Assembly (NCBI RefSeq): GCF_054482595.1
Contig: NZ_JBTHVH010000001.1
Length of the DNA stretch: 64,000 nucleotides
Strand: one strand, 5' to 3'
DNA from: a plasmid
A program made the translations under genes and the position numbers. The notes beneath the pieces are model-generated. The model saw only the letters and a list, made by a program, of their open reading frames with translations, was not told the origin of the DNA and searched no databases. Shown in pieces: positions 1,941 to 59,121 of this stretch (the first letter of the stretch is position 1; every line of letters begins with the position of its first letter).

Positions 1941-2127
1941 GTATTTTTAAGTCGCGAATGCTATCTTTTTGCATCATATTGACCTTTTAATCGTTCAGGC
2001 TTATAGTTTCGCCGTCGTAGCAAATTCTGCGACCGGGTTTAGCAGCCTGAATGATTGTGCGGACAGCCGCAGATATCCGATATTGCGGTATTTTTGTGTC
2101 CGTAAAACTGCGTTACGCCCAAATTAT

Positions 2128-2204
2128 GGTGGGGCGTGATGGGGAGGCTTCGGCCTGCTGGTTTCACAATCGCCAGTCTGCTAACCCCGTCACGTCCTGC
2201 CACC
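2128..2204 (+). ncRNA. c4: c4 antisense RNA of immI module 1 (77 nt)
   Basis: GGTGG...CCACC terminal stem, internal CTTCGG hairpin. Boxes a' CACAAT (2165-2170) and b' CTGCTAA (2178-2184) are complementary to ATTGTG at 2054 and 2238 and TTAGCAG at 2039 and 2208. The 77-nt span matches the published c4 size. Confidence 0.8.
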
Positions 2205-2254
2205 TGTTTAGCAGCGGGTAGCAGGTTGTTAAACCTGATTGTGAGGCCGTAACT

Positions 2255-20925: not shown

Positions 20926-23186
20926 AAGAGCTGTGCTATGGATCTGTTTGCAGTGGAATTGAAGCCGCGAGTATTGCCTGGGAACCGTTGGGTATGCGTC
21001 CGGCGTGGTTTGCTGAAATCGAGCCTTTTCCATCTGCCGTTCTTGCGCACCGCTGGCCCCATGTCGCCAACCTTGGCGACATGACAAAACTTGCCAAAAA
21101 AGTCCTGGCTGAGGAAATCGAATCCCCTGATGTGCTCGTCGGGGGTACGCCTTGTCAGGCATTCAGTATCGCGGGCTTACGTGGTGGGCTTGATGATGAA
21201 CGCGGCGCGCTAACTTTGAAGTATGTGGAGCTTGCAAATGCAATTGACGACAAACGGTCTGAGTCCTTCCTCAAACCGACAGTTATCGTCTGGGAAAATG
21301 TCCCAGGAGTCCTGTCATCGGCAGATAACGCCTTCGGATGTTTCCTTGCCGGATTGGCTGGAGAAGATGCGCCATTCGAACCAGGTGATCGACCTGAATC
21401 AGGAAAAAGTAACTCGTTCTGGCGGTGGGATGTCAAAACCGGTTGCCATGCTCCAAAGTGGCCGCAGTGTGGTTGTATTTATGGACCGCAGCGAAAGGTG
21501 GCCTGGAGAATCCTTGATGCCCAATACTTCGGAGTGGCACAACGACGCCGACGCGTGTTTGTTGTCGCAAGTGCTCGAACAGACCTCGATCCCGCAACGG
21601 TACTTTTTGAGTTCGAAGGCGTGCGCCGGAATATTGCGCCGAGCCGAAAAAAGAAGGAAATCGCTTCCGCCATTATTGCAAATGGCGCTGCAATCAGTGG
21701 CGAAAGCCTAAATCCATGCCTACACGCTGACATGCCACCCGGTATGAAATCGACGAAAGCCGTAAACGCTTTCAGGATGGCAGCATTTGGGGAATATATT
21801 GACGATGAAACCGCATCGACAGTAAAGGCAAGAGATTTTAAAGATGCCACTGACCTTGCCGTTTTTAGCAGCACAGGAGCAGGTTTTTGGTCAGAAGGGC
21901 ATGGTACATTGCGGGCACGTGAGCAAGAAAGCCATGAGCATCTTGTTACATTGGCTTTTCCTGAGCGTATGAGCGGTACACAACATGCTGCAACTAAGAA
22001 TACTTCACCATCTCTAATGGCTAAAAATCCAACAGCTGTTTGCTATGAAGTAAGAAACGCAGAAGTAGCTGTCCGCCGTCTTACCCCTGTCGAATGTGAA
22101 AGGCTGCAAGGTTTTCCTGATGGGCATACGTTGATCCCGACGGAAAAGCGTAAAAAAGTTAATTCAGATGAACTGGCATATCTTCGCAATCACTATCCAG
22201 ATTTAAGCGAAGAAGAGGCCGCGATGCTTGCAGCTGACGGACCGCGTTACAAAGCGATCGGCAATAGTATGGCAATACCAGTAATGCGCTGGATTGGCGA
22301 TCGGATTACTAAGGCCGTATGTCGGCAGAAAGAAGGAAGTGAAACAAAAGAGCGAAAAGTTAAACCAGCGGCAGAATTCGAACGGTCCATATTCAAATGG
22401 GCTGGTGGAAAATTTGGTGTTCTGGAACAAATCTTTCGCTATTTGCCAGAAGGGAAGCGCCTGATTGAACCTTTCGTTGGTGGCGGAGCTGTCTTCATGA
22501 ATGCCGGATACCAGGAAAATCTGCTAAATGATGTGAATGCTGACCTGATTAACTTTTACAAGACTCTGCAACGCGAGGCGAATTCACTTATCACTCTGGC
22601 ACATCGTTTCTTCCAGGACTACAACACACAGGAAGGATACCTGGCAGTACGGAATGCGTTTAACAAACAAGTCTATGATGATTTACATCGCGCAGCGGCG
22701 TTTTTGTTCCTGAACCGACATTGTTTTAACGGATTGACGCGTTACAACCAGGCCGGTGAGTTCAATGTCGGTTATGGGAAGTATAAAACTCCGTATTTCC
22801 CATTACAGGAGATGGAAGCCTTCCTCGGTGCGGAAGGGCGGTCTGAGTTTGTATGCGGTGATTTTGCAGCGGTGATTGAAGCTGCCGGAGAAGGAGATGT
22901 TATCTTTTGCGATCCGCCGTATGAACCGCTTCCAAATACAGAGGGATTCACGAACTATTCCGGTCATGACTTTAAGTTTGAAGAGCAAAAACGCCTGGTG
23001 TCTCTGTTGACGGATGCTCATCGTCGAGGTGCAAAGGTTCTCATTACTAACAGTGGCGCGCCAAACATCAGAGAGCTTTATCATGACAGTGGCTTCAGAG
23101 TGGAACCTCTTTTTGCCAGACGTTCTGTGTCTTGTAAGGGGGACACTCGAGGTGTAGCTCATGACGTTTTGGGCATATTGCTCTAA
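20922..23186 (+). CDS. dmt: bifunctional DNA methyltransferase (C5-cytosine-type N-half, Dam-type N6-adenine C-half)
   Basis: 754 aa. GGTPCQAFS and ENV motifs in the N-half; FCDPPY in the C-half. Confidence 0.9.
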
Positions 23187-23204
23187 TAAATTTATTAGTG
23201 TAAT
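23177..23204. promoter_or_regulatory. overlapping inverted pair of C1 operators
   Basis: ATTGCTCTAATAAATTT (17/17) overlapping the reverse ATTACACTAATAAATTT. TAATAT -10-like hexamer at 23201. Confidence 0.8.
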
Positions 23205-23209
23205 ATCGC

Positions 23210-23392
23210 CCCAATGAATCGTGATTTATAGAGCGATTTAGCTGTTAGCCGCGACAGGCGCGGCGGTAAGCATGGCTGGGCCTAGTCCTCCCAGACAAAC
23301 CACCGAGTTGCCAGGTTGACCATGCGCCTAAGTGGCAACGCCGAAGTGCGTTACGAGCTTCCAGTTTGCCCATCTTCGGGTGGGCGTTTTTT
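23210..23392 (+). ncRNA. candidate C1-controlled structured RNA ending in a strong terminator
   Basis: Hairpins GCCGCG/CGCGGC (23249-23265), CTGGG/CCCAG (23274-23294), GTTGCCA/TGGCAAC (23308-23338). Terminator GCCCATC-TTCG-GGTGGGC plus T6 at 23368-23392. No credible ORF. Confidence 0.45.
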
Positions 23393-23573
23393 CAGGGTTT
23401 TCGTCATGGTTAGCGACTTTGCGGCGGTTTAGAAACTGACCATTAAAGTAAATGCAAACGATGATCTGATGATGGTAGCGGCCTAAGAAACCAGATGCCA
23501 CGGGGTATGAGTCGTCCCCCGTCAAAAAAATCGACCGCAGAGTGTCCCCGTCTGTGTATTAGGGAACGGGGAG

Positions 23574-23656
23574 GCACAACAGGTAAGGGCGCTGGTGTGA
23601 TTAACCAGATGAACGAGAAGGGGCCATCTGTTGGTCAGCGTCCTTTCCTGTTGCGT
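23574..23656 (+). ncRNA. structured hairpin unit A of a four-member family
   Basis: Arms 23578-23594 and 23636-23652 pair over 17 bp (one mismatch, one G-T). Shares the base ACAGGTAAG/CTTTCC-GTT with units B and D. Confidence 0.45.
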
Positions 23657-23858
23657 TTTCTTTTCAGCGTAACAGCGGTGCTTAACAGCACTTTGGGTAC
23701 AGTTCCACGAATTTACGGGTATATCCCGTCATGCTGAAGGCGCTAATCACGCTGGAAGCCAGGGTTGTGCATCCCCTGTTACCGAATTGCAGCCAGGGCG
23801 CGGTGCGCCGAAAAGCATACGGAGGTGGAAGCCCTCGCCGGAGACGTACCCGGCAAGT

Positions 23859-23934
23859 GATGGTGTAGCTCAGCGGTTAGAGCGGTTGACTGTTAATCAA
23901 CGGGTCGATGGTTCAAATCCATCCACCATCGCCA
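23859..23934 (+). tRNA. trnA: tRNA-Asn (GTT)
   Basis: Manual cloverleaf: acceptor GATGGTG/CACCATC, anticodon loop CTGTTAA, T-loop GGTTCAAATCC, encoded CCA. Confidence 0.9.
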
Positions 23935-23936
23935 AT

Positions 23937-24012
23937 GCCGGTTTAGCTCAGTTGGTAGAGCGCCTGCCTTGTAAGCAGGATGTCAGCGGTTCGAGTCCGT
24001 TAATCGGCACCA
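23937..24012 (+). tRNA. trnT: tRNA-Thr (TGT)
   Basis: Acceptor GCCGGTT/AATCGGC (one G-T), anticodon loop CTTGTAA, T-loop GGTTCGAGTCC, encoded CCA. Confidence 0.9.
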
Positions 24013-24110
24013 GCACAACAGGTAAGGGTATTTTGCGACGTCGGAGATCGCCGAGCTTGGCAGAGGGTTCGAATCCCTACGAAGTACCCTTACCGTTGTG
24101 ATGAAGTGCA
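24013..24110 (+). ncRNA. hairpin unit B with tRNA-like interior, beginning at the base after the tRNA-Thr CCA (stem starts at 24016)
   Basis: 14-bp stem 24016-24030/24085-24098 with a bulged A. Interior has GCGA-N9-TCGC and a canonical T-arm AGGGTTCGAATCCCT. No D-arm. Confidence 0.5.
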
Positions 24111-24235
24111 GCTCTTTGAAGCAACCAGAAGATAAGCATCTGGCTTCACAACATAAACCGCAGGAACGACCAATAAACGGTAGTCCGTATGGAGAACACC
24201 CCGTTGAGGAAGAGGCCTGGCCGGAACCGTAACCG

Positions 24236-24345
24236 GCACTACAACGTTGAGAACACTGGCGTAACGGGGTCATATCCCAATCTACGAATAAATGTTGCGT
24301 TGCAGCGTGACAACCAGTGTTCTCAACATTGTGGTGAATGCACAG
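24236..24345 (+). ncRNA. hairpin unit C
   Basis: 19-bp stem 24241-24259/24314-24332. Interior motif GTAACGGGGTCATATCCCAATCTAC. 3' tail GGTGAATGC. Confidence 0.45.
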
Positions 24346-24510
24346 GCTGATGTGCCGCAACTACAGTAGTGCGCGCTTTGCGGGGCTTGCTACAACCCTG
24401 TGTCGGAGTTCAGCACCGACCATCACAGTTTGATTCTCTGGCATGAGCATAACGCTGAAATAAGTCCAGCCTGGTGCGGCCCGATCACCCGCCGTTAGCT
24501 CCACGAAACG

Positions 24511-24605
24511 GAGCACGTAACAGGTAAGAGCATTCTCCTGTAACGGGTTCATATCCCAATCTACAGGTCCACCAAGAATGCTCTTTCCGTTGCGGTGAAT
24601 GCGGC
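24511..24605 (+). ncRNA. hairpin unit D
   Basis: Stem 24518-24536/24575-24592. The interior GTAACGGGTTCATATCCCAATCTAC is near-identical to unit C. 3' tail GGTGAATGC. Confidence 0.45.
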
Positions 24606-24744
24606 TAAGCACACGCGGGGAAATGGTTATATCAGTCCATTCATTTCTCCTTGTTTCCCCGTCCACGGTGGATAACCAGCCAAAGGACACCGGGAGGCAC
24701 CCGGCACCGCAGCTTTTTTATTCGTTAAATAATGGAGTGAGAGG

Positions 24745-24981
24745 ATGCAGAACAATCCGAACAAATGTCGAACGCTATGGGTGCGGTTATATATTTATGC
24801 CGTCCTCTGTTTGATTGTGTCACTGGTTCTGTATGTTTGGCTTTTGCCAAATATGATCTCATCTAACAGCACAATACTTGTATTGTTGGGAGTCCTTCTC
24901 GCGCTCATTTACCCGGCTTTCGCAGTAGTCTTTTTTCGTGAAAAAACCAGGAAATTAATTAATGAAAAAAACGTTGATTAG
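24745..24981 (+). CDS. small two-TM membrane protein
   Basis: 78 aa with two hydrophobic helices. Overlaps the next gene by 20 nt. Confidence 0.6.
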   Translation: MQNNPNKCRTLWVRLYIYAVLCLIVSLVLYVWLLPNMISSNSTILVLLGVLLALIYPAFAVVFFREKTRKLINEKNVD

Positions 24982-25789
24982 TGCAGCGATTATTTTGGGT
25001 TCTTTATGTCTGACCGGATGCGATCGGGTAGAGCCAGGTAACGTAGGGATCAAAGTAAATAAGCTGGGGGATGATAAAGGTATCGGTGAAGTAGTTGGCG
25101 TTGGTCGCTACTGGACAGGCTTGAATACTGAAGTTTATATCTTCCCGACCTTTAAGCAAATGAAGACATACGATGAGCCGTTCAGCTTCCAGATGAGCGA
25201 CGGAACAACCATTGGTTACCACATCGGCGTAGCCTACAAGGTTGATCCAGCAAAAGTCACAACGGTATTTCAGACCTATCGCAAAGGTGTAGATGATATT
25301 ACTGATACCGATCTACGCCAGAAGGTTGCAGATGCTCTGAACCGGTTAGCCAGCAAAATGACCACCGACAAATTTATCGACGGTGGCAAATCTGAATTGC
25401 TTGATGCAGCCCTTAAAGACATTCAGGAAGAAATGACGCCAATCGGCATTCAGGTGATGAGCCTCTCTTATGTAGGTAAGCCAGAATACCCGCCAACAGT
25501 TATTGACAGTATTAACGCCAAAGTCACGGCAAACCAAAAAACCCTGCAACGCGAGCAAGAGGTCAAACAACGTGAAGCAGAGGCCAACATGCTGCGCGCG
25601 GAAGCTGCCGGACAGGCTGATGCTATTCGCACAAAAGCCCAGGCCGAAGCTGATGCCATTCGTTTACGTGGTGAAGCTCTGCGCCAGAACCCCGGTGTTA
25701 TGGAGTTGGAAGCGATCAACAAATGGAACGGTACATTACCGCAGTATATGACCAGTAATACCGCTGTTCCGTTTGTTCCGGTGAAATAA
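24962..25789 (+). CDS. SPFH/band-7 family lipoprotein
   Basis: Lipobox CLTGC. SPFH-like core. C-terminal A/E/Q/R coiled coil. Confidence 0.75.
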   Translation: MKKTLISAAIILGSLCLTGCDRVEPGNVGIKVNKLGDDKGIGEVVGVGRYWTGLNTEVYIFPTFKQMKTYDEPFSFQMSDGTTIGYHIGVAYKVDPAKVTTVFQTYRKGVDDITDTDLRQKVADALNRLASKMTTDKFIDGGKSELLDAALKDIQEEMTPIGIQVMSLSYVGKPEYPPTVIDSINAKVTANQKTLQREQEVKQREAEANMLRAEAAGQADAIRTKAQAEADAIRLRGEALRQNPGVMELEAINKWNGTLPQYMTSNTAVPFVPVK

Positions 25790-44335: not shown

Positions 44336-44629
44336 ATGTGGAGAGGTAATAGTCATGGCAAAAGCCAGATGATACTTACCGAATATCAGTTTGACCATAA
44401 AACCAATAAATCACGTTCAGTATATTTGCTTCGGCACAATAGCCGCGTAAGGAATACCGTGCTGGAGCAAAATCTGACTGTTGAAATAGATAGTTACGGG
44501 GGCTTCAAGCCAACAATTTCGCTTGATGATTTTCCTCGTGGTTTAAGCGAAAGAGAAGCAATGCTGAAATTAGCAGAATGGCTACAAAGATTAAGCATTG
44601 CTATTGAAGATAACTGGTCTGAACCTTAA
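44336..44629 (+). CDS. hypothetical protein
   Basis: ATG 44336, in frame with the track ORF. Confidence 0.5.
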   Translation: MWRGNSHGKSQMILTEYQFDHKTNKSRSVYLLRHNSRVRNTVLEQNLTVEIDSYGGFKPTISLDDFPRGLSEREAMLKLAEWLQRLSIAIEDNWSEP

Positions 44630-44635
44630 ATTTAT

Positions 44636-45010
44636 ATGATGACACTAAAACATTTTCTTGACCGCCCATTATGGGCGGCAGCCGCAGGCTATGACTTTAA
44701 TTATATGGATTGCATGTCTTATACCGCCAATGCATACGACTATTCCTTCAGTCTGCTGCTTAATTCTTTAAGAATATTGCCGCAAACAGAAGTTGGAGAG
44801 CTTCATTTATGGCTATTGGGCTTTATCGCGGCTGTCGTTGGTATTGCTGTATGGCCTTTTATTTTCTGGCTGGTGGCTGTTGTAGTGTGGTTTAAGTGCA
44901 AGACATACCGGAAAAAGTATTTCTTAGGTGATGGAATGACTGATATTGCCAAAATGAACATTGAAGAATGGACTAAGGAATGTGAAAAGAAATGGCGCAA
45001 AAAGAAATGA
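44636..45010 (+). CDS. membrane protein
   Basis: 124 aa with central TM helices. Confidence 0.55.
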   Translation: MMTLKHFLDRPLWAAAAGYDFNYMDCMSYTANAYDYSFSLLLNSLRILPQTEVGELHLWLLGFIAAVVGIAVWPFIFWLVAVVVWFKCKTYRKKYFLGDGMTDIAKMNIEEWTKECEKKWRKKK

Positions 45011-52234: not shown

Positions 52235-52417
52235 TGTTTTTTAACTACCGATGTTACATTGAACCTGACCTCTTGCGCCTTGAGGCATTTTCGGTTTATG
52301 CTTATCAGGCACCTCAGTAAAACGGGTGCCGGGATTGGCCTCCCGCTTAAGTCTAAGGCGATACAGACGCCGCTCGCGTCTTTTTTTTGTATCGGCGTAC
52401 ACGCACACCTCTACAAT

Positions 52418-52493
52418 GGTGGGCTGTATGGGGCTACCTTCGGGTAGGCTGGTTACCTTGGACGCCAGTAAGGCCAACTCCGTACAGTCCACC
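52418..52493 (+). ncRNA. c4-like antisense RNA, module 2 (76 nt, different recognition boxes)
   Basis: Same architecture as c4 (GGTGG...CCACC ends, CTTCGG hairpin). a' CCTTGGAC (52456) pairs with GTCTAAGG at 52351 and 52535. b' AGGCCAA (52471) pairs with TTGGCCT (52335) and TTGGTCT (52504). Confidence 0.65.
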
Positions 52494-52553
52494 GCCAGCA
52501 AGATTGGTCTCTTCTGCGGTGGTTACATACCAACGTCTAAGGAGGCTGCCAAT

Positions 52554-58820: not shown

Positions 58821-58870
58821 AGTTACGGCCTCATGTACAGGTTTAACAACCTGCTATCCGCTGCTAAACG

Positions 58871-58947
58871 GGTGGCAGGACGTGACGGGGTTAGCAGACT
58901 GGCGTACATGAAACCAGCAGGCCGAAGCCTCCCCATCACGCCCCACC
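58871..58947 (-). ncRNA. c4-like antisense RNA, module 3 (77 nt; a' box CATGTA instead of CACAAT)
   Basis: Near-identical to c4 of module 1 except the a' hexamer. Both targets are changed to TACATG (forward-strand coordinates 59016-59021 and 58832-58837). Confidence 0.75.
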
Positions 58948-59121
58948 ATAATTCGGGCGTAACGTGGTTTTACGGACACAAAAATACCGCAATATCGGAT
59001 ATCTGCGGTTGTCCGCATGTACATTCAGGCTGCTAAACCCGGTCGCAGAATTTGCTACGACGGCGGAACTATAAGCCTGAATGACAGGAAGATCAATAGT
59101 CTGGCGTTCAATGGTAGTATT

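Follow-up and report, generated by a model that had tools for sequence, protein, structure and literature searches.

This report concerns four long hairpins, here called units A to D, in a 64,000-nt stretch of plasmid DNA (NCBI RefSeq assembly GCF_054482595.1, contig NZ_JBTHVH010000001.1), referred to below as the window. The four hairpins are the P1 copies of a widespread RNA element of enterobacterial phages, which is unannotated in the records checked. The element consists of a conserved, base-paired scaffold of the sense strand with exchangeable tips, and it is found in untranslated leaders beside tRNA genes and modules resembling small RNAs (sRNAs). The leader is that of the C1-controlled ban operon in P1 and that of the late operon, right after tR', in phage lambda. 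The window is from a P1-like phage/plasmid (Punavirus), and its positions 23150-24750 are 99-99.8% identical to P1 isolates. The units very probably constitute a real, functional RNA family; their role, which is weighed further below, is most likely that of a processing or stability cassette, a reading that we hold tentatively.

A conserved RNA scaffold with exchangeable tips

The four units of the window are as follows.

23575-23655, + strand: unit A, arms 23577-23595 / 23636-23653; fold z -5.71, inverted repeat I2
24014-24100, + strand: unit B, arms 24016-24035 / 24080-24098, bulged A at 24020; fold z -5.72, inverted repeat I6
24240-24333, + strand: unit C, arms 24242-24259 / 24314-24331; fold z -6.17, inverted repeat I1, repeat family D2
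24516-24594, + strand: unit D, arms 24518-24536 / 24575-24592, bulged A at 24522; fold z -4.19, inverted repeat I4, repeat family D2

The initial annotation of this stretch, made from the letters alone, had placed a hairpin at each of these sites, and all four indeed fold on the + strand. The long stems are reproduced in minimum free energy (MFE) folds of -44.8, -43.1, -49.2, and -37.4 kcal/mol for A, B, C, and D, and none of 200 dinucleotide shuffles of each unit folds as well. The reverse complements fold less well, with z scores of -4.37, -3.60, -4.71, and -2.62, respectively. The shared parts that had been pointed out were also recovered. The repeat finder (families D1 and D6) gives AACAGGTAAG(G/A)G as common to A, B, and D. 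The inner sequences, or cargos, of C and D share a 25-nt motif, called motif alpha below (24261-24285 in C, 24540-24564 in D), which is identical at 24 of 25 positions (family D2), and the same two units end in a common 3' tail, TGTTCTCAACATTGTGGTGAATGC or TGCTCTTTCCGTTGCGGTGAATGC (family D4). A basal helix is present in all four units; its first pair is U.G in D, and in C its fourth is a C.A mismatch. The bulged A described for B and D is present in both; in A it is paired with an extra U, and C belongs to a no-bulge class that also occurs in other phages. Unit D keeps a U.U mismatch that is typical of the family, and in unit B the 3' arm reads CUUACC, which places a U-A pair there. The 3' tail of unit A is U-rich (CGUUUUCUUUUC) and lacks the GGUGAAU described below.

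To regard the four P1 RNAs as the whole family proved too narrow. At least about 100 distinct units, that of lambda included, were extracted by pairing the arms through local alignment, with lengths of 60-159 nt and a median of 81. Their consensus, CA-CAAC-A-GGUAAGAGCAUUG...CAGUGCUCUUUCC-GUUG-UG, is a scaffold stem of ~19 bp with a bulged A and a conserved U.U mismatch, which bears an exchangeable apical cargo of 25-130 nt; as read from the viral-contig matches, the scaffold is (GCA)CAACAGGTAAGAGCATTG ... CAGTGCTCTTTCCGTTG. The stem amounts to ~19-23 bp, made up of a 6-bp base and 13-14 bp (longer in some units), with one bulge and one mismatch. When viral contigs were searched for exact matches to the 3' foot CCGTTGNGGTGAATGC, at least 120 loci were obtained, and ~85 of the 120 listed show the same scaffold around wholly different interiors; a second scan of viral contigs, anchored on the 5' arm, gave at least 76 distinct units. 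Because both collection scans used exact anchors, these counts are lower bounds and are biased toward the consensus. When bacterial genome contigs were scanned with CCGTTGNGGTGAATGC, 2 real units were found among the at least 120 loci listed, the rest being chance matches.

The pairing of the scaffold was assessed on 75 distinct arm pairs, in which a tetraloop stood for the cargo and an N filled the bulge column of the no-bulge subclass. Changes on both sides are seen at 13 of the 18 stem pairs, and 91.4% of the cells pair, as against 81.5% in shuffles and 37-61% with slid partners. Counted by cell and not by event, in sequences that are related, there are 123 compensatory cells against 38.7 in shuffles, and none of 500 shuffles reaches the observed value. 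That this covariation signal is real is supported by the slid controls and by the many stem variants that arose independently. The bulged A after the fourth pair is conserved, and the stretch past it, GGUAAG/CUUUCC, contains the non-Watson-Crick U.U, at the next-but-two pair, in 53 of the 75 arm pairs. The base extends to CACAAC/GUUGUG, a 6-bp helix that is 97.4% paired in 71 sequences and that shows A-U to G-C switches in the type of P1 unit D. A mini covariance model (arms only, cargo replaced by GAAA) did not recover units A-D, probably because the units exceed its maximum hit length.

Across the family, G.U outnumbers A.C by 181 to 33. The tRNAs within 1 kb of a unit are co-oriented with it in 92 of 92 cases, and so are ~82% of the nearest flanking open reading frames (ORFs). 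Therefore, from the G.U bias together with the co-orientation of tRNAs and ORFs, the functional form is the sense-strand RNA. The earlier proposal that structure is kept while sequence drifts, and that this points to a functional RNA of the + strand, is thus borne out in its core. The drift needs rewording: it is mostly wholesale replacement of the apical cargo, while the scaffold itself is highly conserved.

The 93 distinct inner sequences fall into 56 clusters without detectable mutual similarity. A T-arm-like hairpin (a 4-bp stem and a UUYRANN loop) occurs in 10 of the 93 cargos, as against 0.27 expected from shuffles (~37-fold). In unit B this hairpin, AGAGGGUUCGAAUCCCU at 24062-24078 (T-arm scan), is combined with a D-arm-like hairpin at 24035-24051, which has GG in its loop (CGUCGGAGA), and there is no anticodon arm, so that the 'elbow' of a tRNA only is represented. 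Motif alpha, ACGGGNYCAUAWCCCAAU, is found in 14 of the 93 cargos, those of units C and D among them; a covarying stem encloses it in lambdoid copies (CUGUA/UACAG versus GCGUG/CACGC). Taken alone, the cargos are slightly more structured than shuffles (mean z -0.43, p ~1e-4; 5.7% below -2). Some cargos are thus selected modules, and many could be loosely constrained loops or single-stranded, seed-like stretches.

Exchange of cargo at the arms is seen between close relatives, with P1 and P7 differing in the same slot: P7 (locus L005, 1667-1730) has a cargo in the unit-B slot different from that of P1. RCS47 (L003, 1452-1650) has one extra unit and one extra copy of the downstream module (module 2, described below) in tandem, which add 197 nt. 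Ro157c2YLVW (L002, 1290-1376 and 2104-2165) has a tRNA-Tyr between the Asn and Thr tRNAs, and a 13-nt deletion removes the core of motif alpha from its unit D. In D6 (L006, 2125-2211) and P7, a tRNA-Ser-like gene is directly followed by a further no-bulge unit (L005/L006, 2200-2307), whose 5' arm, CAACGUUAAGAGUAUUUGG, begins at the 3' end of the tRNA; in the D6 record the amino acid of this gene is not called by tRNAscan-SE.

In lambda (NC_001416) the unit is at 44,789-44,860, 9 nt past the T-run of tR', the terminator of 6S RNA, and lies under the hypothetical orf-64; this ORF (44621-44815) overlaps both tR' and the 5' arm of the unit. Copies are also present in P1 relatives, in Klebsiella lambdoid phages, in two of which a hairpin like unit D separates a Q-tRNA cluster from the holin gene, and in one virulent Ackermannviridae phage, MDA2066, in which a complete unit and a downstream module lie in a 3.2-kb non-coding tract beside tRNAs. 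The scaffold is near-identical across Escherichia, Klebsiella, and Serratia phages of different families. Matches of 40 nt, the sequences of which were not inspected, were obtained in an N4-like Schitoviridae phage, beside tRNAs, and in other Klebsiella phages; Salmonella phages matched a wider lambda-type query only, and no unit was examined there. A 41-nt junction, comprising the 3' arm and the downstream module, is found in 1115 complete E. coli genomes out of 5426 (969 places on chromosomes, 376 on plasmids), and there is no annotated feature under it among the 40 E. coli matches listed. Nor was an annotated feature seen under the inspected family matches. The M3 RNA of phi80, a classical non-tRNA RNase P substrate, was considered as a member of the family and refuted; it is annotated as an oop homologue (L254, 36229-36288).

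The P1 leader and the modules around the units

In the annotation of reference P1, the matching region is the leader of the C1-repressed ban operon. Besides the four units it holds the following features.

23161-23206, + strand: P1ban/P2ban promoters and C1 operator Op72 (Oban), which drive the whole leader; transferred from reference P1 (L001 1512-1557, offset +21649), the region being 99% identical
23186: end of dmt (reference P1 annotation)
23301-23402, + strand: 'dicF-like region' of reference P1 (reference annotation), with a strong intrinsic terminator at its end (23367-23392, terminator scan)
23546-23571, + strand: small hairpin P0 before unit A (CCCCG...CGGGG); from the sequence, and part of the MFE fold of 23555-23700
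23859-23934, + strand: tRNA-Asn(GTT); ARAGORN, and Rfam tRNA at 74.5 bits
23937-24012, + strand: tRNA-Thr(TGT); ARAGORN, and Rfam tRNA at 72.9 bits
23983-24360, - strand: plp, 'putative lipoprotein', 125 aa; antisense over units and over the 3' end of tRNA-Thr
24098-24156, + strand: tail of unit B, GUGAUGAAGUGC plus a hairpin, with a second CACAAC at the end; a short variant of the downstream module (fold of 24005-24175; boundaries by eye, 3' end approximate)
24221-24236, + strand: small hairpin P0 before unit C (CCGG-AACCGUAA-CCGG); from fold and sequence
24331-24426, + strand: module 2 of type 1 after unit C, made up of GUGGUG-AAU, GCACA(GGCUGA)UGUGC, a variable insert, GUCGG(AGUUCAGCA)CCGAC, and CAUCAC; loops GCUGA/UCAGC complementary
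24361-24690, - strand: upl, antisense (reference P1 annotation)
24498-24514, + strand: small hairpin P0 before unit D (GCUCC-ACGAAAC-GGAGC); the same hairpin stands before 19 other units
24591-24719, + strand: STnc100-like module 2 after unit D (Rfam), closed by GCGGUG...CACCGC, with a hairpin CCGGG(AGGCA)CCCGG and a T-run at 24714-24719

The tRNA genes are interleaved with the hairpins, as had been noticed: tRNA-Asn and tRNA-Thr, called by ARAGORN and Rfam, sit between units A and B, and unit B begins 3 nt past the CCA of tRNA-Thr. In the reference P1 leader trnA and trnT come after the 'dicF-like region', and ban lies much further downstream. The region is also GC-rich, as had been stated (G+C 0.51-0.56 versus ~0.45 in the flanks); the GC skew of the leader is unremarkable. 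Because the first plausible + strand ORF of the window starts only at 24745, ~1.5 kb of the P1 transcript is untranslated. The intrinsic terminator at 23367-23392 is only ~180 nt past the ban promoters, within the 'dicF-like region', for which DicF has no Rfam match at E<=10 in 23100-24800. The layout of promoter, terminator, and unit in P1 resembles that of lambda, where pR', 6S RNA, and tR' are followed by a unit. The units themselves are not called as intrinsic terminators by the scan, which finds only 23367-23392; the U-rich tail of unit A fails the terminator rule, and the T-run at 24714-24719 follows module 2, not a unit. Nor are the units tRNAs, as ARAGORN and Rfam call only three true tRNAs and no unit.

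That the region lacks a credible ORF, as the initial annotation had it, is true with a qualification: the reference P1 annotates plp and upl across units B-D, as does RCS47, yet neither behaves like a gene. Although ORFs of 125 and 109 aa exist in the window, tblastn against RCS47, P7, Ro157c2YLVW, SJ46, and even reference P1 shows them truncated or passing from one frame to another (-3/-1/-2). There is no Pfam match for either, plp runs antisense through the 3' end of tRNA-Thr, and the substitutions follow the paired stems. Since the frames are lost in close relatives and no Pfam match is found, plp and upl are probably not genes, and the view that these minus-strand ORFs are real genes, with the hairpins incidental to them, is hardly tenable.

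The limits first given to the units are too narrow, in that each hairpin is the 5' part of a larger arrangement with a P0 hairpin upstream and a further scaffold downstream. On the upstream side of 102 units, 18 start just past a T-run terminator, as in lambda, and seven start 3 nt past the CCA end of a tRNA (CCA-GCA/ACA-CAAC). About 45 follow a small hairpin, which is GCUCC-ACGAAAC-GGAGC in 19 cases and a similar purine-loop hairpin in ~26. The adjacency to tRNAs claimed by the initial annotation is frequent but not obligatory, since 36 of the 102 units have a tRNA within 1 kb.

On the downstream side, UGGUGAA follows ~60% of the units anchored on the 5' arm. In P1, the tail (U/C)GGUGAAU with a second module is present after C and D, in a variant (UGAUGAAG) after B, and not after A. 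The scaffold of module 2 is GUGGUG-AAU-GCGCA(GGCUGA)UGCGC, a variable insert of 10-150 nt, and GCCGG(AGAUCAGCA)CCGGC-CACCAC, with a topology that is cloverleaf-like overall. In at least 27 distinct copies (L011, L021, and others) the loops of its two hairpins are complementary to each other (GCUGA/UCAGC), and in one lineage (L071, L104) both loops have changed together to GUCGA/UCGAC. This paired change suggests a loop-loop kiss.

The module after unit D gives a sub-threshold match to STnc100 (RF02076; 35.9 bits versus a gathering score of 47, E 9.4e-06, 24591-24711, model positions 31-147), with an alignment that includes UGGUGAAU and CACCGGGAGGCACCCGGCACC, and a related locus gives 36.0 bits over the full model. 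To judge from these alignments, the module is probably a distant relative of STnc100. The relation concerns the flanking module only and not the hairpin: the hairpins fall outside the STnc100 model, the positions 1-30 of which do not correspond to the scaffold.

The hexamer CACAAC marks both the 5' edge of unit B (24014-24019) and the 3' edge of its downstream module (~24151-24156), as it does in many lambdoid loci (CACCACAAC). Because of this recurrence at both ends of the composite, the GUUGUG at the foot of the hairpin has two possible partners, and the recurrence could reflect an alternative pairing or be a trace of unit duplication. An alternative 9-bp pairing of GUUGUGGUG with the downstream CACCACAAC is possible in C, D, and many lambdoid copies; it was dropped, as the downstream CAAC is poorly conserved.

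Beyond the leader, the window holds a 78-aa ORF at 24745-24981, a membrane protein according to the annotation of a related phage, and an SPFH/Band 7-domain protein at 24962-25789 (Pfam E 9.7e-31), a lipoprotein according to the annotation of relatives. Reference P1 holds tciA, tciB, and tciC in their place, and therefore the passenger genes of the ban operon are exchangeable. Elsewhere in the 64 kb, Rfam finds three copies of C4 antisense RNA, two c4-a1b1 target sites, and one isrK-like RNA. These RNAs lie at 2001-2207 (+), 52309-52499 (+), and 58868-59074 (-), and two C4/a1b1 sets are inverted relative to each other, near opposite ends of the window.

Processing and other possible roles of the units

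Among the roles considered, the most likely is that of a processing or stability cassette in leader transcripts that combine tRNAs, sRNAs, and mRNA; it is favoured tentatively, and every processing step is one that we infer. Host endonucleases would cut, or be kept from cutting, at the double-stranded stem and the conserved single-stranded GGUGAAU that adjoins its 3' end: RNase III would be the enzyme of the stem, and RNase E or RNase P that of its base, with GGUGAAU as a plausible RNase E site. The hairpins would thus punctuate a precursor composed of tRNA, hairpin, sRNA, and mRNA. Processing would free the 3' end of the tRNA 3 nt upstream, define the 5' end of the downstream STnc100/PasD-like module, and turn the apical cargo into a small RNA of its own; some cargos resemble a tRNA elbow. 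The scaffold would be constant because conserved host machinery reads it, and the cargo would be swapped by recombination within the conserved arms. This role is favoured because the units sit at the 3' ends of terminators and tRNAs and at the 5' edge of an sRNA-like module, and because the length and irregularity of the stem resemble phage RNase III signals.

Several points weigh against it. A pure processing signal needs no cargo. From the near-identity of motif alpha (24 of 25 positions) across the differing stems of C and D, and from the excess of T-arm-like hairpins over expectation, it follows that at least some cargos are selected for their own sake. The weakly structured cargos do not decide the matter, as they fit neutral filler and single-stranded seed regions alike. 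The bulged A and the U.U might just as well bind a protein or keep RNase III from cleaving. Finally, no unit was found in the late leaders of phi80 and the K-12 prophage DLP12, and therefore the element is not essential for the expression of the late operon; DLP12 thus offers no tie to the annotation of K-12.

The cargo may itself be the active part, with the stable scaffold presenting variable RNA ligands (tRNA-elbow mimics, motif alpha, seed-like stretches) as effectors. Such ligands would titrate host RNA-binding proteins, tRNA-directed enzymes, defence nucleases, or sRNAs and mRNAs, and would turn over fast in an arms race. The 56 unrelated clusters within a near-invariant scaffold, the enrichment of T-arm-like hairpins and their pairing with a D-arm-like hairpin in unit B, and the retention of motif alpha across different stems all speak for it. 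A parallel exists in the prophage region that encodes STnc100 and PasD (see below), which also encodes anti-sRNAs and sRNAs bound by Hfq, conserved in the body and variable at the ends (PMC4104026; bioRxiv 10.64898/2026.05.13.724894). Most cargos are, however, little structured, no Rfam family, YrlA included, matches the units, and tRNA-like cargos would be poor decoys for anticodon nucleases because they lack an anticodon arm. On balance such a role is possible, though rather less probable than processing. More doubtful is a wider version, in which the scaffold would be a universal adaptor for one conserved host or phage factor and the hypervariable cargo a fast-evolving library of RNA effectors, swapped by recombination in the arms among enterobacterial phages of unrelated families. 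Taken as a whole, and with the same doubt attaching to the combination, this would amount to an RNA cassette system for counter-defence or host take-over, placed in the leaders under the heaviest transcription in lambda, P1, Ackermannviridae, and N4-like phages and coupled to a tRNA-shaped second scaffold with a loop-loop kiss. It is unlikely that the hairpins serve passively, keeping a long ribosome-free leader folded and limiting Rho loading or exonuclease entry, with the apical part as unconstrained filler and the 3' hairpins as stabilisers of tRNAs or 6S-type RNAs upstream. The length of the untranslated tracts (P1 1.5 kb, lambda ~400 nt, MDA2066 3.2 kb), the weakly structured and replaceable cargos, and the hairpin density and high G+C of the region would all suit such a function. 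It leaves unexplained why the scaffold is near-identical in phages of different families and hosts, and why the U.U, the bulged A, and the single-stranded GGUGAAU are conserved, and the unremarkable GC skew of the leader lends it no help.

A role at the level of DNA, whether as recombination linkers, as a MITE-like (miniature inverted-repeat transposable) element, or as an attC-like single-stranded DNA hairpin site, with the RNA structure as a by-product, is decidedly improbable. It would account for conserved arms flanking unrelated inserts, for swaps and tandem duplications that break in the arms, for CACAAC at both ends of the composite unit, and for the spread over unrelated phage families. 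Integron attC sites and the ERIC and REP sequences are likewise imperfect inverted repeats with conserved ends, extrahelical bases, a variable centre, and horizontal spread. The units differ from them in being co-oriented with transcription and G.U-biased, in having no integrase context, and in carrying an insert too short for a gene cassette; we know of no sequence relation to ERIC or REP. The strand asymmetry of the pairs, the co-orientation of tRNAs (92 to 0) and of most flanking ORFs, the compensatory changes that keep pairing and not sequence, and the conserved unpaired nucleotides adjoining the stem all argue against a DNA element, and no recombinase or transposase was seen in the annotated contexts examined, which were not surveyed systematically. 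Recombination within the arms is more readily understood as following from their conservation. Still less probable is that the units are Ro/Rsr-binding RNAs of the YrlA type. Y RNAs, some of which are phage-encoded, likewise have a long bulged stem closed by the 5' and 3' ends and a tRNA-like D/T elbow, and unit B is of the same general design; but the likeness extends to only ~10% of the family, most members being without tRNA-like cargo, and no unit is matched by the YrlA model. No Ro orthologue is known from E. coli K-12, in which lambda and P1 are classically grown, and no Ro/Rsr context is known for the units, a TROVE search of the window not having been made. The remaining probability belongs to something not yet thought of.

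Known RNAs and significance of the element

Rfam 15 has no family that covers the units, whether in the window or in the 20 related loci scanned. In scans of these at the gathering score, and of 23100-24800 at E<=10, nothing but chance matches of the microRNA type fell on the hairpins. The initial annotation had offered YrlA, ROOL, and GOLLD for comparison, and none of them matches the units. The sole YrlA (RF02553) match, of 25.6 bits against a gathering score of 69, lies at 23879-23996, over the two tRNAs and on no unit; ROOL and GOLLD have no match at E<=10 in 23100-24800, nor at the gathering score in the window or the 20 related loci. GOLLD and ROOL are alike to the units in being non-coding RNAs beside or enclosing phage tRNA genes, with conserved and variable parts and lytic expression, but the units are a chain of small modules and not, as far as seen, one large multi-domain fold. 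Several readings made by eye were dropped as well: a hammerhead, because CUGAUG is without the required A9; a retron msr/msd, because there is no reverse transcriptase; and also a C/D box or k-turn for UGAUGA, lambda boxB-like P0 loops, and a mimic of 4.5S or 6S RNA.

Parallels are found in known processing signals of phages. The RNase III signals of T7 (R1.1) and of the lambda N leader are stems of ~20 bp with internal irregularity. Such signals (T7 R0.3-R18.5; lambda N leader and sib) are also sets of related, irregular inter-cistronic hairpins of ~20 bp within long phage transcripts; they have common sequence because one host enzyme reads them, and protective hairpin ends are left after cleavage. 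The units fit this geometry, with ~20 bp of mostly continuous double-stranded RNA, an irregularity, and co-orientation in operons, and cleavage of them is putative. They differ in that there is no sequence relation, and in that the T7 sites have small apical loops, without inserts of 25-130 nt, and do not extend across unrelated phage families. Species 1 and 2 of the T4 tRNA region (rnaC, rnaD) are small structured RNAs that are co-transcribed with the phage tRNAs and matured from the same precursor. They are single genes, in contrast to a scaffold family with variable inserts, and we know of no sequence or structural relation between them and the units.

STnc100 and PasD share the niche of the units, being located in untranslated sequence past pR' in lambdoid and Stx prophages. 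STnc100 has been reported as an sRNA encoded by Stx2 prophages, 75 nt past stx2, and PasA, which comes from the same prophage regions, reportedly arises by cleavage of a longer transcript (PMC12370729; bioRxiv 10.64898/2026.05.13.724894). STnc100 and PasD, as prophage sRNAs of the late-leader region, are described as having a common fold and a differing seed (bioRxiv 10.64898/2026.05.13.724894). The hairpin family is not mentioned in these sources (PMC12370729; bioRxiv 10.64898/2026.05.13.724894), and literature searches with the scaffold and module-2 sequences and on related topics found no description of it, subscription journals being a possible exception. The element thus appears to be undescribed. 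In kind it belongs with the structured or processing RNAs of polycistronic phage leaders, and its unusual trait is the combination of a universal scaffold with a swappable cargo.

Lambda and P1 are among the best-studied genomes, yet the element is unannotated in both, lying under orf-64 in the one and under plp and upl in the other. The gene calls plp and upl, and possibly orf-64 of lambda, deserve re-examination. About a fifth of complete E. coli genomes contain the element, on chromosomes and P1-like plasmids, and phages of several families, both temperate and virulent, have it as well. Were the scaffold a processing signal, it would explain how tRNAs, sRNAs of the STnc100/PasD type, and lysis or toxin mRNAs are carved from one leader, and the stx-carrying region of Shiga-toxin phages would be included. 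With the cargo as the active part, phages would have in the element a modular means of evolving and exchanging small RNAs.

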